From positions 203,827 to 267,826 of IMG/VR virus record IMGVR_UViG_3300028833_000057: a DNA stretch of 64,000 nucleotides, one strand, 5' to 3'. Shown piece after piece: positions 38,138 to 46,076 of the stretch. Position numbers and translations under genes: made by a program. Origin of the DNA: a virus. Taxonomy: Duplodnaviria; Caudoviricetes. The notes under the pieces are model-generated. The model had not been told where the DNA came from and made no database searches. It saw nothing but the letters and a program-made list of their open reading frames with translations. Within the stretch, counting starts at the first letter, position 1; each line of letters starts with the position of its first letter.

Positions 38138-39088
38138 TTATTCATCAAATATAGAACTGATCTTAGATTTATATTCTTCAAGTGCAGATTTAGCTGCATC
38201 TTCGGAATTAAATCCAAGGAAAGGTACTAATGAAAAATTTAAAACTGTAATTCTATTCATTATAGACAATGTTTTAGTACACATTAGTGAAATCTTTTGT
38301 ACAATTTCTTTAAGAAGGGATACTTGATCAGAGGTGTATTCTTTATTATTACTTAAAGAATTTATAGTAGCATCCAATCTCTTAACAGATAAGGTAAGTA
38401 TTTTAAATGATGTATCGGATATATCTTTATATTTATCAAGATATTTATCTAAAAACTCAGGATACTTCGCTGCTGGTACTCTATTCACATGTACTTTATT
38501 GGCTCTACTTATTATACTACTCTTGAGATTATTATTAAAGGCATCATAATGTCTTATAATTTCCTTATGCATAGAAGATATTTCTTCAGGTTGGAAGCTG
38601 CCAACTTTTTCAATGTCTTTTATTAATTCATTTAATTCCTCTGTCATACTTTTAACGTCACCAAATGCTACTTCGGCTCCATCAGCATAGTATCTAATAT
38701 CATGAATGCCTTCGTAATATTCATTTTGGTCAGCAGCTTCGTGTGCAGGTTCTGTTTTATCTTCTTTAGATTTTGTATTATTTCCATCTTTCTTTTTAGA
38801 AAGCTTGGCTTTAATTGCATTAATTCTTTTAGATATAAATTCTTTAATTTTATTATATGCAGTTACAATAAAATTCTTTATTTTCTTTACAAGTTCTTTA
38901 ATAAAATTCCATGCAGCCAATGCATACTTTTTTGCATTATCAGTAAAAGCTTCATTAGCTAAAGCATAGTAATTTGCAGATTCATTACTAACCTTTAATG
39001 CACTTTCACTTTTTATAACAGAAGCCAACTGACTATTTAAGTCTTCTGACGATTCAATTATAAATGATAGTATATCTGAATATAGCAT
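38138..39088 (-). CDS. Internal head protein paralog
   Basis: SNES..ALANE|A..WNFIKELVKKIK; promoter TACATTATATTG 39114-39125. Confidence 0.7.
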   Translation of the reverse strand: MLYSDILSFIIESSEDLNSQLASVIKSESALKVSNESANYYALANEAFTDNAKKYALAAWNFIKELVKKIKNFIVTAYNKIKEFISKRINAIKAKLSKKKDGNNTKSKEDKTEPAHEAADQNEYYEGIHDIRYYADGAEVAFGDVKSMTEELNELIKDIEKVGSFQPEEISSMHKEIIRHYDAFNNNLKSSIISRANKVHVNRVPAAKYPEFLDKYLDKYKDISDTSFKILTLSVKRLDATINSLSNNKEYTSDQVSLLKEIVQKISLMCTKTLSIMNRITVLNFSLVPFLGFNSEDAAKSALEEYKSKISSIFDE

Positions 39089-39180: not shown

Positions 39181-40134
39181 TTAATCGGCTAACATAGCCT
39201 TAACTTTTTCATCAATCTTATTAGTAACTTCTTCATACTTTTCTTTAGCTGCTTCAGGAGTAGCAAATCCAGACACAGGCATAAGTTCTAGCCTGACGTT
39301 AATCATATACTGTCTAACACCATTATACTTAGCTATGAATGAAGTAAACGTCGAGCAAAGTGTCTTAGCCACAGCAAGATTCTTTTCAGGATAATCTGCC
39401 ATATTAGAGGCTTTTTGAACACCCTTTTCGAATCCATCAAGCATATGCTGTATAAGCTGATAGCATTTATCTTCAAGCTTGGTATAACCAGCAATAAGTT
39501 TTGAAGCCAAATCAGGATATTGAGAAGCTGGCACTTTCTGTACAGAGGATAACATAGCGTTAGCGTTTCTAAAGGTCTGATCATAGTACTTAGAAGACTT
39601 CATAAGTGCTATATAATTTTCAATACCCTTAAGTTCTTCATCATTCATGTCTTTCATGCCAGCAATGACTTCACCAAATTCCATTTCCTTTGCGGTTTCA
39701 TTCATAACCTTGATGGATTCGTCATAAATTGCCGGATGGGCTACACCGTAATAGTACACGACATCTTCAGCAGCTTCATGAGCTGGTTCTGCTTTAGCTT
39801 CTTCAGGCTTCTGACCTTCAGCAGGAGCACCTGCATCCTTTTTACTAAATCTTGCTCTAATAGCAGCAACACGCTTTTGGAAGAATTCCTTAACATGCTT
39901 AAAAGCATTAAGTATGAATGTTTTAATCTTATTAAGAATGTCCTTAATAAATTTCCAAACTTTACCAGCGTATTCTCTTACCTTATCGCTAAGACCTTCG
40001 TTAGCTAAAGAATAAAAGACTGCAGACTCATTACTAATGCTGGTCGCAAATTTGTATTTCATGACTTCTGCATAAGTTTTGTTGATGTCTTCTGTAGAAG
40101 TTATTGTGTAGAGTAAAATATCTGAATAGGTCAT
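39181..40134 (-). CDS. Internal head protein paralog
   Basis: SNES..SLANE|G..WKFIKDILNKIK; shares EPAHEAA with neighbour; promoter 40157-40168. Confidence 0.7.
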   Translation of the reverse strand: MTYSDILLYTITSTEDINKTYAEVMKYKFATSISNESAVFYSLANEGLSDKVREYAGKVWKFIKDILNKIKTFILNAFKHVKEFFQKRVAAIRARFSKKDAGAPAEGQKPEEAKAEPAHEAAEDVVYYYGVAHPAIYDESIKVMNETAKEMEFGEVIAGMKDMNDEELKGIENYIALMKSSKYYDQTFRNANAMLSSVQKVPASQYPDLASKLIAGYTKLEDKCYQLIQHMLDGFEKGVQKASNMADYPEKNLAVAKTLCSTFTSFIAKYNGVRQYMINVRLELMPVSGFATPEAAKEKYEEVTNKIDEKVKAMLAD

Positions 40135-40994: not shown

Positions 40995-41003
40995 AAAAAA
41001 AAA

Positions 41004-41029
41004 TGCCATGGGAACGAATTCCCATGGCA
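41004..41029 (-). terminator. Intrinsic terminator
   Basis: TGCCATGGGAA/TTCCCATGGCA 11-bp stem, UUCG loop on minus strand, followed by a U run. Confidence 0.9.
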
Positions 41030-41031
41030 CT

Positions 41032-41327
41032 AAAACCTAGTTATCAATTATTAAAGATACGATGAAACTAAATCCAAATCGAAATCAAAAACCAGATTCC
41101 CAGCAAAAGCAAAAGCAATGATAGGAATTTTGGGAATCTGTAAAGTGGCATCGAAAGTTGGGGTCGAACCAACGTATCTCCAGCTTACAAAGCTAGTGCT
41201 CAACCTACTGAGCTATTTCGATAATTGGGGCCAATCACTTAGCCTTACAGTCATTAAAAGTTGTATCTTTAATAATCAAATCTAGCTAACGAAGTAGACA
41301 AGCTCCAAGCGTTAGCTCCTAGGTTTT
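41032..41327 (-). ncRNA. Large structured RNA enclosing a tRNA, downstream of coiled-coil gene
   Basis: Helices 41032-40/41319-27, 41047-60/41263-76, 41284-91/41310-17, 41093-102/41131-40, 41138-45/41243-50. Confidence 0.8.
41146..41222 (-). tRNA. tRNA with UGU (Thr) anticodon, non-canonical acceptor, encoded CCA
   Basis: ATCGAAA/TTTCGAT acceptor, GCTC/GAGC D stem, TT-TGT-AA loop, GTTGG TTCGACC CCAAC, G73-CCA. Confidence 0.85.
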
Positions 41328-41343
41328 ATCTCCTTCCCATCCT

Positions 41344-42210
41344 CTAGTAATTCTTCACGAAATTGTAGATATCTTGAAGATTATCGGGAATGATAATCTT
41401 CAGGTCTGCAATTCGCTGAATTTCATTGATGGTTTCCTGCGAATGTTCAGCAGTCTTAGTTTTAAACCAAGAATCGTATTCGTTGAACTTCATACGATAT
41501 TCTGCAAGAAGACGATCGTTCTCCTTCGTCATCTTCTCGTTAATGGAGTGTTTAATTCCATTAAGTTCAGCCTGGATGCTGCGGAACTGTTCTTGAAGCT
41601 GCATGAATACCTTGTCGATCTCTTCCATAGGGATCGATGAAGAGTATACAGCAACAGTGAGAGAAGGAGTTCCCACGCCAGATACGTCCTGCTTACCCAT
41701 CTGAGCTTTTACAGTTTTTCTTGCTCTATTGAAAGAACCATCAGGATGGATAATCTTTCCAATATTTGCAGCTTGTGCTTCAAGCTCCAAATACTTCTGT
41801 CTTTCGCCAACTGACATCTGGTTGATGATATCATCTTCAGAGACCTTCTCAAGATCCGGGCGTTCCATGCACTTCTCGCCCTTTTCACAGAGCCATCTGA
41901 ATATATCTCGATTACGAAGATCGGTTTGAGCCTTTTCCTTTGCATCGATCGCTTCGCGCAACCATGCATTGAGAGCTTTTAACTTACCAACCTTCTCCAA
42001 TTCGGCAATCTTGGTATTGAGCCATTCAAGGCTCTTACCAGCTTCAACAAGAATTGGATCAGCACCAGCAACCTTGTAGGTTACATTCACAAATGTGAAG
42101 TCGTTCAGTTCTCTTTGAATTCCCTCAAAGATCTCCTTCGACTTGTTTGCTATGAAGTTCGCAGAAGTACTGGTGAGGCCTTTCTCACCAAAATAAACCT
42201 TATTGAACAT
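41344..42210 (-). CDS. Coiled-coil protein associated with downstream structured RNA
   Basis: 288 aa; GLTSTSAN..AN, AWLREAI.AK, AA.IGK.IHPDG, L.IIIP..L motifs; high-expression codon bias; own early promoter. Confidence 0.8.
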   Translation of the reverse strand: MFNKVYFGEKGLTSTSANFIANKSKEIFEGIQRELNDFTFVNVTYKVAGADPILVEAGKSLEWLNTKIAELEKVGKLKALNAWLREAIDAKEKAQTDLRNRDIFRWLCEKGEKCMERPDLEKVSEDDIINQMSVGERQKYLELEAQAANIGKIIHPDGSFNRARKTVKAQMGKQDVSGVGTPSLTVAVYSSSIPMEEIDKVFMQLQEQFRSIQAELNGIKHSINEKMTKENDRLLAEYRMKFNEYDSWFKTKTAEHSQETINEIQRIADLKIIIPDNLQDIYNFVKNY

Positions 42211-42251
42211 TTTTACTCCTTGTTAAAGATTAAGTTGAAAAGGTTCAAAAT

Positions 42252-42260
42252 TTAATATAA
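42252..42260 (-). promoter_or_regulatory. Early-type promoter TTATATTAA (representative)
   Basis: Same motif at 5047, 14953(+), 20122(+), 27402, 36053(+), 42760, 43670, 45806, 46511, 59136. Confidence 0.7.
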
Positions 42261-42262
42261 TA

Positions 42263-42733
42263 CTAAAAATTACCATCAGCTACTTGAAGGCAAGTATAAC
42301 CTAATTCGCGCCATTTGGCAACCATAGAGTTACGGTCTTCAAGAATATAGCAAATGTTATATTCAGGATGTTCCTTTAATAAAGCATTAAGTAATTCAGG
42401 CTTAACTTCCGTATCATGGCGAGTATCACCATCTTTACGGAAAAGCATATGTAAAGGAGTATACTGGGTATTTACCAAGTGATGCTTCATCCATGCTATA
42501 GTCTTTTCCTTAATACTTTCACGCCTACCGGAACAGAATATAATATCATAATAGGTAGATAATTCTTCTACTAATTGAATAATTGCTGGAATAGGTTTAT
42601 CTTCTAAACAAGATTCATAAAATGCATCCCAGTTCGGAGTTTCTAAGTCAGTAATATACTTTTTAGCACGTTCCGAACAATCGGCTATTGTACCATCGAT
42701 ATCAACGACGATAATGTATTTTTGTTTACTCAT
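42263..42733 (-). CDS. HAD phosphatase (T4 PseT/PNKP 3'-phosphatase-like)
   Basis: DIDGTIAD, SGR, R..GDTRHD..VK, EDR..V..WRELG.TCLQVADGNF. Confidence 0.9.
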   Translation of the reverse strand: MSKQKYIIVVDIDGTIADCSERAKKYITDLETPNWDAFYESCLEDKPIPAIIQLVEELSTYYDIIFCSGRRESIKEKTIAWMKHHLVNTQYTPLHMLFRKDGDTRHDTEVKPELLNALLKEHPEYNICYILEDRNSMVAKWRELGYTCLQVADGNF

Positions 42734-44256: not shown

Positions 44257-45348
44257 CTACTCAATATAAGAGAATGCCTGTCCTTCACCGAAGTATTTTT
44301 CGATGATAGAAACGACATTTTCCTTATTGATGATTTCAAAGTTCTTGCTGGGCACAGTATACCCAGCATGTTCATTGAAAATCCTGCGTGCAGTCTCATG
44401 CTTAAAGAGTTCTTTATACTCTTCTTGAGCAGCAAACTGCTTACGGATGATATCAATTCGTTCATCCGTAACATGTTGTCTGACATTTGCCAAGAGATCC
44501 TGCATGAGTGGAAGCACCTCTTTGGGCTTATCACTCATAGACAAGAATGTTGGCAATCTTCCACCCATTTCAAGCAGGATACCACCAGTCATGTATACAA
44601 GACCGCGTTTCTCACGCAGTTCCTGCATAAAGGGCGACTGAAGACCTTCCGAAAGTGCATTGATAGCACTAGCCAGAAGAAGTGATTCATCTGGATTGCG
44701 ACACGGTTTGTTTGCAGTAATCCAGATGGTCTTCTGCGGATTTCCGGTTTCCTTCTCAAAGGAAGGTTCACCAGAAATCCTCTCGATCTGAGGGAAGATA
44801 TGCGGGTACAGCTCTTCATGGCTTTCACCTTCAAGCATCGAATTCGGTCCAATAGACAAAATCCAAGGCCTGGTAAAGATCTCCTTACAGTTGTAAAGAT
44901 AATCTTCGTATTTAAATGCATTCACACCAGACTCAATGCCAGTGCTGCCATAAAAGTCAAAATTATCCCACAACATGTGGTGCAATGCCGCACGGATGGG
45001 TTGAGAGAATACCATACCAATTTCTTGGCAAACCGTATTTTTTTCGTTCTCAAAAGTAGCCTTATCCACAGGCTTTCCATGGATAATAGCCTTCGAGAGT
45101 TCCTCAGCCAGCGGCTCAATGTTCTTAGTGAGTCCTGAGAACTGGATCACCATGTTCTCATTGGAGGTATGCGCCTCCTCACTAATATCACCGGCCTGGA
45201 GAGCATCCCTCAAGTGCTTATAATGGTGGCACAAGAGATGTTCCAAGAGATGAGATGTACCCCTGATGCTCTTACGCTCACTAAGCGGAGAGCAATTATC
45301 GTAGACAAAACAAAGTTTCGAATACGGTAAAGAGTTCTGAATATGCAT
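44257..45348 (-). CDS. M16 family zinc peptidase
   Basis: GTSHLLEHL (HxxEH), ENEKNTVCQE, S.FMQELREKRGLVY. Confidence 0.9.
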   Translation of the reverse strand: MHIQNSLPYSKLCFVYDNCSPLSERKSIRGTSHLLEHLLCHHYKHLRDALQAGDISEEAHTSNENMVIQFSGLTKNIEPLAEELSKAIIHGKPVDKATFENEKNTVCQEIGMVFSQPIRAALHHMLWDNFDFYGSTGIESGVNAFKYEDYLYNCKEIFTRPWILSIGPNSMLEGESHEELYPHIFPQIERISGEPSFEKETGNPQKTIWITANKPCRNPDESLLLASAINALSEGLQSPFMQELREKRGLVYMTGGILLEMGGRLPTFLSMSDKPKEVLPLMQDLLANVRQHVTDERIDIIRKQFAAQEEYKELFKHETARRIFNEHAGYTVPSKNFEIINKENVVSIIEKYFGEGQAFSYIE

Positions 45349-45773: not shown

Positions 45774-46004
45774 AATATCCTCTTATTTAATTATTATTCT
45801 ATAATTTAATATAATATGCAGGATAAAAATTTTACAAAAAAAAAAAATCTCTATAGCCTTATATGGACTATAGAGATATTTTTCAGTGTTATGCTACTTT
45901 GCACCATTAGTTTAACAGATTATGACACTTGTATGTTTAGGGAATAATTTTGTGTGATAAGGTCTTATTAAACTAACTAGTTCGTTAAGCTAGATCTACA
46001 CTAG

Positions 46005-46076
46005 AGCCTAATGAATGATTCGAACACTCGACATATACATTACAAATGTATCGTTCTACCACTGAACTAATTAGGC
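46005..46076 (-). tRNA. tRNA-Thr(UGU)
   Basis: GCCTAAT/ATTAGGC acceptor, TT-TGT-AA loop, TTCGAAT. Confidence 0.9.

Follow-up and report, generated by a model that had tools for sequence, protein, structure and literature searches.

It is rare for a new class of bacterial or phage RNA to have a fixed protein partner, and earlier cases have often led to new biochemistry. Among the closest described systems are the Ro60 protein with its Y RNAs, such as the YrlA RNA of the RNA-repair operons rsr-yrlBA-rtcBA, and TRAP, which reads 11 GAG/UAG triplets in a 5' leader and controls attenuation. Phages are also known to carry GOLLD and ROOL, large structured RNAs of unknown function that often adjoin or surround tRNA genes (Weinberg et al. 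2017, PMC5737381; bioRxiv 10.1101/2024.12.08.627333). Here we analyze a locus that shares features with each of these, found in a stretch of 64,000 nucleotides (nt) of a rumen phage (positions 203,827 to 267,826 of IMG/VR record IMGVR_UViG_3300028833_000057), hereafter called the window. The source record comprises 267.8 kb with 33% G+C, 10 tRNAs and homologs of phiKZ-type internal head proteins. On the minus strand of the window, a gene for a 288-amino-acid (aa) protein is followed by a structured RNA that contains two sets of 6-nt repeats (hexamers) and an embedded tRNA. Hundreds of gut phages and Bacteroidales genomes were found to carry this pair of protein and RNA. An earlier reading made from the letters alone (the original prediction) had recognized no described system in this architecture, and we likewise found none that fits in the databases and literature searched. 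The reading that we favor, with confidence about evenly balanced, is that the locus represents a new protein-RNA cassette of Bacteroidales and their phages, acting as a ribonucleoprotein in which the protein reads the hexamer array.

The original prediction had treated the protein gene and the structured RNA as one system, and genetic coupling of the two is what we observed. Genes flanking the pair are unrelated between loci (53 upstream neighbors fall into 41 clusters and 50 downstream neighbors into 36 clusters), and some phages carry the unit by itself on the strand opposite to its neighbors. For detection of the RNA we relied on a sequence-only profile (R1), built from 22 distant regions that comprise the repeats and the preceding hairpin HP3, none of which come from the window's clade. 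R1 gave a single match in the 64-kb window (41118-41065, E 6e-7) and exactly one match in each of three whole genomes of 3.5-4 Mb, about 200 nt downstream of the gene. Among 151 Muribaculaceae species genomes R1 matched 11, and a protein profile matched the same 11 (E <1e-99), with both partners on the same contig and strand and the RNA 170-290 nt past the gene. The other 140 genomes harbor neither gene nor RNA, except for a 54-residue protein fragment (E 1.7e-4) in one of them. The pair was rare in a second family (151 genomes), where 1 RNA match and 2 strong protein matches were found; read directly, the gene lacking an R1 match is followed by a diverged RNA with the long-range helix P3 and hexamers. 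Gene and RNA thus co-occur in a manner indicating that they are inherited together as a patchy accessory cassette. One chromosomal copy, in the complete Muribaculaceae chromosome CP061009.1 (L357, ~2,461,564-2,462,436), carries one in-frame TGA at residue ~245, with the RNA core still detected downstream; this could reflect a broken gene, a sequencing error or recoding.

In the window, the promoter motif, open reading frame (ORF), RNA and terminator that were predicted to form one minus-strand unit were all located (Table 1), including the hairpin with its UUCG loop. The long-range helix P1, which together with P3 closes the RNA, begins 17 nt past the stop codon of the ORF, and the stretch between ORF and terminator contains no credible ORF. 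A stretch of 356 nt folds better than 100 of 100 shuffles (z = -5.4), and a non-coding flank of ~340 nt is kept in relatives whose proteins are 95, 78, 76 and 61% identical. From six relatives RNAalifold recovered a nested P1, the hairpin HP1, P3, a small hairpin, the full tRNA cloverleaf, HP3 and the terminator. Both sides had changed with pairing kept in 22 of 92 pairs, and such compensatory changes were present in P1 and P3, for which covariation had been the check proposed, as well as in the side hairpins HP1 and HP3. P1 and the two hairpins were therefore found essentially as predicted, and P3 stood as a helix of 17 bp rather than the 14 bp originally given. A further helix, P4 (CUGUAAGG/CUUUACAG), had been proposed to bracket the tRNA. 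Its strands are indeed complementary in this sequence, but the helix is not conserved: it is lost even in relatives with 95% identical protein, overlaps HP3 by three bases (CAG) and was not predicted by RNAalifold, and it was dropped from the model for these reasons. G-U pairs, which would become A-C on the opposite strand, and the terminator fix the functional strand.

Table 1. Features of the cassette locus, in window coordinates.
Feature	Position	Strand	Basis and remarks
Promoter-like motif TTATATTAAATTTTG	42246..42260	-	Ahead of the 288-aa ORF; repeated in the window
Gene for 288-aa protein of an uncharacterized family	41344..42210	-	ORF list; 169 homologous clusters
Structured RNA, ~296 nt, from P1 5' strand through P1 3' strand	41032..41327	-	RNAalifold compensatory changes; family-wide architecture; RNA-library contigs
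P1 5' strand	41319..41327	-	Pairs with 41032-41040; 9 bp; one pair C-G to U-A in two relatives
HP1 hairpin AGCUAACG/CGUUAGCU with inner 4-bp stem	41284..41317	-	41317-41310 with 41291-41284; five pairs changed on both sides
P3 5' strand	41263..41279	-	Pairs with 41044-41060; 17 bp; seven pairs changed on both sides
Embedded tRNA(UGU) with A1-U72, G73 and encoded CCA	41146..41222	-	ARAGORN Thr(UGU); Rfam RF00005, 61.5 bits (gathering score 29)
HP3, 10-bp hairpin with loop ending in three hexamers (41118-41101)	41093..41140	-	41140-41131 with 41102-41093; three pairs changed on both sides
Tail of single-stranded NUHUUG-type hexamers, immediately 3' to HP3	41064..41092	-	Hexamer scoring; profile R1
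P3 3' strand	41044..41060	-	RNAalifold
P1 3' strand	41032..41040	-	RNAalifold
Intrinsic terminator hairpin, UUCG loop then T run	41002..41031	-	13-bp stem; invariant in relatives

The motif TTATATTAAATTTTG was found in 10 copies at no more than 2 mismatches in the 64-kb window against 2.3 expected, 9 of them on the minus strand. Exact copies are also present ahead of the neighboring PNKP-phosphatase gene and near-copies ahead of a tRNA cluster; the motif presumably acts as a promoter. A motif scan of the window returned 0 copies between the 288-aa ORF and the RNA. The ORF has a copy of its own in front and therefore, presumably, its own start signal, with the RNA co-transcribed behind it.

Beyond the window's clade, a common layout is found behind nearly all homologous genes: a closing helix, a first hairpin, P3, a variable middle, HP3, the hexamers and the 3' strands of P3 and P1. 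The loop of HP3 ends in 2-3 hexamers, and 4-6 single-stranded hexamers follow, beginning 0-1 nt past the hairpin. The consensus of the hexamer reads N, U (87%), not-G, U (89%), U/C, G (86%), or NUHUUG. When arrays were called as four consecutive hexamers matching at least 13 of 16 positions, they were present in 123 of 161 downstream flanks (76%) and in only 12 of 755 control segments (1.6%), at a median of 227 nt past the stop codon. The repeats pointed out in the original prediction at 41118-41101 and 41092-41064 are therefore not peculiar to this phage. Fold and repeats are kept behind most homologous genes, with about a quarter of the loci below the hexamer score. P3-type contiguous helices of at least 16 bp occur in 38% of 66 non-redundant loci versus 0.4% of dinucleotide shuffles, and HP3 stems of at least 12 bp in 33% versus 1.2%, with the same arrangement in every clade. 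These counts of contiguous stem length replaced RNAduplex z-scores, which were blunt for the closing helices (median z -1.6). The stem sequences of closing helix and HP3 are unrelated between clades, and the recurrence of the helices with unrelated stem sequences amounts to covariation at the scale of the family. When MAFFT and RNAalifold were applied to the 22 distant HP3 regions, the alignment misplaced the 5' strands and no pairs were predicted as a result; a sequence-only profile was used instead.

Some variation was observed around this core. A K-turn-like sequence pattern (C-stem, 3-nt bulge, GA...GA), read by eye, is present in the HP3 loops of 16 of 49 representatives with differing C-stems (CCC/GGG, UCU/AGA, CUC/GAG, UUC/GAA and GGC/GCC), and is absent from the window's own HP3. 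In one subclade (L053, L058, L082 and L085) the hexamers are NUAUCA-like and a D-arm-like tRNA sequence lies ahead of them with no tRNA call; this subclade may have a variant of the RNA whose tRNA-like module is degenerate. The hexamers by themselves are unspecific. The bare hexamer score gives ~35 weak matches across the AT-rich genome of the window's phage, with two adjacent sets at the cassette locus only, and a degenerate DNA pattern run over viral contigs gave 119 matches, of which one lay beside a strong match to the protein family and one beside a short weak match.

A short hydrophobic peptide encoded by the hexamer run, as a small ORF or in a tmRNA-like fashion, was also considered. 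One frame reads alternating small and hydrophobic residues, changes in G+C-richer relatives fall at the third positions of that frame, and a 50-aa ORF spans both repeat sets in the window. The openness of the frame means nothing, as it cannot contain stops by construction. Moreover, in other clades the loop and tail repeats read out of frame or are separated by stops, no start codon or resume context is present, and neither ARAGORN nor Rfam calls a tmRNA at the window RNA. Coding repeats were rejected since conserved positions include third codon positions and the two sets do not share one frame across clades, and we regard a peptide as very improbable.

The complete 77-nt tRNA that was predicted within the RNA is present, but it does not define the RNA, as most family members lack an internal tRNA. 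The embedded copy is recognized as a tRNA by RF00005, with a cloverleaf, a canonical 7-nt anticodon loop and D and T arms of consensus type. Of the 10 tRNAs in the genome, no other has its CCA encoded. The same phage has a canonical tRNA-Thr(UGU) at 46004-46076 with G1-C72 and C2-G71; the embedded tRNA has A1-U72, U2-A71 and G73, and so lacks these acceptor identity pairs of tRNA-Thr. In the window's clade one and the same tRNA body is combined with UGU, CAU or UAU, and in more distant clades anticodons GCU or ACU (with A33 replacing U33), AGA or UAA, or anticodon loops of 6 nt, are found. An encoded CCA is present in the inserts of the window's clade and in the three inserts of a second clade, and most have A1-U72. 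These drifting anticodons, together with the clade-limited presence, indicate that the tRNA module is evolutionarily labile. In a clade of ~97-kb phages, either a tRNA-Pro or a tRNA-like element, which has an anticodon loop of 6 nt and scores 36 bits with the Rfam tRNA model, starts ~4 nt past the closing helix, and RNase P could therefore make the 3' end of the RNA at this point.

Long helices bracketing a structurally normal tRNA, as seen in the window phage, would also be expected if the flanks were merely leader and trailer of a tRNA precursor, with stems for processing like those of rRNA operons and with the tRNA as the one part of importance. The survey of the family contradicts this: among repeat-bearing loci, a tRNA lies inside the RNA in 20, a tRNA or tRNA-like element follows it at a distance of no more than 140 nt in 32, and neither is present in 86. 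In addition, bacterial chromosomes keep the core with no tRNA at all, and the precursor explanation is in our view hardly credible. Other small RNA genes were seen near some cassettes. For example, a full-length tmRNA (Rfam 62.6 bits, E 4e-22) was found at L015:1662-2043, on an IMG/VR contig of ~71 kb from the ~97-kb phage clade, ~450 nt upstream of the cassette protein gene and among several tRNAs, which places that cassette inside an island of RNA genes. Two related phages also have near-threshold ribozyme matches upstream of the cassette, one to the RAGATH-1 hammerhead (L071:2192-2262, 55.2 bits against a cut-off of 56.3) and one to the type-P1 twister ribozyme (L035:1103-1177, 44.8 bits against 67.2).

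RNA libraries from sheep and cattle gut, deposited by several studies, contain contigs that cover the RNA. One contig of 378 nt corresponds to 41025-41401 and includes the whole RNA with its tRNA as well as the 3' end of the ORF. The contigs end at 41025-41037, beside the terminator; one that ends at 41037 is joined to adapter sequence. Taken together, these contigs lend weak support to transcription of the RNA. They also bear on the possibility that the RNA is a cis-acting element in the 3' untranslated region (UTR) of the protein's own mRNA, stabilizing it against 3' exonucleases or serving as a feedback sensor, with no role in trans. Such an element would be consistent with the position of the RNA, which is always in the 3' flank of the gene and co-transcribed with it and was never found away from it in the genome scans with R1, and with the 5' strand of the closing helix P1, which starts at or overlaps the stop codon in many clades. 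On the other hand, a stabilizer of mRNA needs far less than a 250-300-nt RNA that combines two long-range helices with conserved single-stranded repeats, tRNA modules and a K-turn-like motif, and a separate terminator hairpin already follows the RNA. In a size-fractionated library, contig depth was also higher over the RNA (14.4 and 9.6) than over the ORF (3.1-3.6), which is a weak measure. A purely cis-acting element is thus an explanation that we consider rather unlikely.

The protein belongs to a family with conserved GLTSTSAN and AWLREA motifs, of which we found 169 clusters by protein search, with 99 relatives in IMG/VR, 363 in metagenomes and 109 in species genomes. Across these four independent collections, members are 27-96% identical to the window protein, its own cluster excepted. 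A scan of viral contigs with the single protein returned no relatives, and a profile scan of the same kind of contigs found them. Among GenBank phages, a DNA search gave only one tRNA-sized match and protein searches gave two unannotated records; the ~97-kb phages are therefore not classical crAss-like phages. No family match was found for the 288-aa protein in Pfam, PHROG, PADLOC or NCBIfam, and a sequence profile search of the Protein Data Bank (PDB) returned no solved relative. An AlphaFold2 (AF2) model with pLDDT 91 consists of long antiparallel helices, two of which are very long (61-99 and 195-269), together with other helices and several short strands, so that the protein, predicted to be all-helical, is mostly but not entirely so. 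Searches with Foldseek against the PDB and BFVD, a wide VIA-align search, and searches of the ESM Atlas by shape and by features recovered generic coiled-coil proteins or the family itself only. A partial alignment to prefoldin-like folds was limited to residues ~129-237, with TM scores of 0.52-0.61 when normalized by the short target and 0.27-0.28 by the query; Foldseek gave the prefoldin chain 1fxk_C a probability of 0.82 with an E value of 0.3. Prediction of a homodimer scored 0.42, compared to 0.41 for an unrelated control. Invariant residues include W83, R85 and E86, as well as polar ones spaced 3-4 residues apart along a long helix (Q206, R210, Q213, N217 and K220), and these residues may form a binding face.

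The genomic context of the cassette hints at an RNA- or tRNA-centered role in stress or conflict. Throughout the window's clade, a PNKP-type phosphatase gene is located directly upstream of the cassette; in the window it lies at 42263-42733 on the minus strand, has TTATATTAAATTTTG ahead of it and encodes a stand-alone HAD phosphatase of 156 aa (E 2e-31) without a kinase domain. Similarly, in one set of loci on Bacteroidales contigs, the cassette is followed by a polynucleotide-kinase-like AAA_33 gene and a Thg1-like gene. About 20 loci (11 species genomes and 10 metagenome contigs) have a divergent WYL-WCX regulator directly upstream, and on the complete chromosome CP061009 the neighbors of such a WYL-linked locus are housekeeping rather than phage genes. 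At WYL-linked Bacteroidales loci (L009/L293, 3394-4028), ~400 nt of extra non-coding sequence is also present between the RNA and the AAA_33 and Thg1-like genes.

Such neighbors are relevant to another explanation, namely that the RNA works alone on a host factor, as its sponge, decoy or scaffold, with the upstream protein as a co-factor or unrelated passenger that does not read the repeats. The host factor could be RNase P, an anticodon nuclease, a tRNA enzyme or a single-strand U/G-binding protein. Protein-sponge RNAs typically carry short motifs iterated in loops and single strands, and tRNA or tRNA-like modules with an encoded CCA and drifting, sometimes non-canonical anticodon loops (A33, 6 nt) would suit a decoy, as would the RNA-repair genes found near some loci (the PNKP phosphatase, and the AAA_33 kinase with Thg1). 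However, a protein irrelevant to the RNA would hardly account for the strict one-to-one coupling with its gene in very different genomes, and an RNA acting by itself appears improbable to us, to about the same degree as a cis-acting element.

The favored reading of the cassette as a ribonucleoprotein would work as follows. The locus would be one copy of a two-gene cassette, made of a helical protein of ~290 aa and a co-transcribed RNA of 250-300 nt in its 3' flank. P1 and P3 would close the RNA and protect its ends, and copies of the protein made from the same transcript would bind the hexamers at their regular spacing, each subunit or binding surface taking one repeat. The tRNA or tRNA-like module would be a clade-specific addition, located inside the RNA in the window's clade or directly behind it in others, that probably recruits RNase P or other tRNA-binding machinery and, where it lies behind the RNA, probably defines its 3' end. 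Excision of the embedded tRNA, proposed in the original prediction to leave an RNA in two pieces, would be a further putative step. Several observations weigh against this view. The family is mildly acidic (median pI 5.9), Pfam searches with the protein and its relatives recognized no RNA-binding domain, and contact between protein and RNA is putative. Co-occurrence of gene and RNA would fit a cis-acting 3' UTR element as well. The quarter of homologous loci that fall below the strict hexamer score includes some with variant repeats (NUAUCA-type) and some that may lack the RNA. Finally, assembled contigs cannot prove transcription, strand, ends, processing or accumulation of the RNA apart from the mRNA.

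The cassette is common in Bacteroidales of gut and rumen and in their large phages, and its simple repeat design makes it testable. This can be done directly in cultured strains that carry it, including the Muribaculaceae strain with the complete chromosome (CP061009), Muribaculaceae Isolate-036 and Prevotella sp. 885. Its adjacency to tRNA modules, RNA-repair genes and WYL regulators may open a new part of RNA-based phage-host conflict, and the drifting anticodon of the embedded tRNA bears on the evolution of phage tRNAs. Elsewhere in the window, two adjacent paralogous genes of ~316 aa (38138-39088 and 39181-40134, minus strand) match PF12699 (phiKZ-type internal head proteins) below threshold, with 19-23 bits against a cut-off of 27. 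A 363-aa ORF at 44257-45348 (minus strand) has a counterpart in relatives that matches Peptidase_M16_C and is adjoined by a DUF1353 gene, a few genes upstream of the cassette.

With regard to known systems, the Rfam search proposed in the original prediction detected only the tRNA at the window RNA (Rfam 15) and no family for the rest, nor did it find a family for the RNA itself in eight related loci. The literature searched holds no description of the RNA, and one elsewhere is possible. Type III toxin-antitoxin systems of the ToxIN kind, with tandem RNA repeats of ~36 nt ahead of a ToxN-type endoribonuclease gene, do not match, as the cassette repeats are 6 nt long and lie downstream of the gene for a protein without a PADLOC or Pfam match. 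The MALAT1/mascRNA system resembles the ~97-kb clade, where an RNase P cut ahead of the tRNA or tRNA-like element just past the closing helix would set the 3' end. That system is nuclear and eukaryotic, with a triple-helix end, whereas no A-rich partner tract was seen in the cassette RNA and the tRNA of the window lies inside the RNA, not behind it. Like GOLLD and ROOL, the cassette RNA is structured, phage-borne and associated with tRNA genes. In contrast to them it is smaller, has a fixed partner gene and carries hexamer repeats, while GOLLD and ROOL form RNA-only cages and have no known partner protein; their Rfam models did not match the window region or the eight related loci. TRAP (trp RNA-binding attenuation protein) and similar ring proteins that read evenly spaced triplets offer a parallel for the repeats: in the cassette, too, a short conserved triplet, UUG, comes back at a constant short spacing along single-stranded RNA, suggesting one repeat per subunit of an oligomer. 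The cassette has 2-3 plus 4-6 repeats and these are in the 3' flank, not in a 5' leader; furthermore, TRAP is a beta-sheet ring, and the cassette protein is modeled as a helical coiled coil with no Pfam match to the TRAP family.

A further likeness is to Ro60 and its Y RNAs, from which the cassette also departs in several respects. Its protein is half the size of Ro60, neither it nor its relatives have a Pfam match to TROVE or vWA domains, and its RNA binding is putative. The RNA lies after the gene and not before it, hexamer repeats are not a feature of Y RNAs, and searches with the Rfam models of Y RNA and YrlA found nothing in the window region (E up to 1) or in the eight related loci (E up to 0.1). 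What the two share is a structured RNA beside its partner gene, a long terminal helix that closes this RNA, a tRNA-like module in some versions and RNA-repair enzymes near some loci. We also tentatively raise a broader and considerably less certain possibility than the cassette reading itself: that an undescribed ribonucleoprotein of Bacteroidales, controlled by a WYL-type sensor in chromosomes and repeatedly captured by phages, uses a protein oligomer to read the hexamers in its own 3' flank and acts on tRNAs or damaged RNA in phage-host conflict, with the tRNA-like modules as bait or handles for tRNA enzymes, as a functional analog of Ro60 and its Y RNAs.

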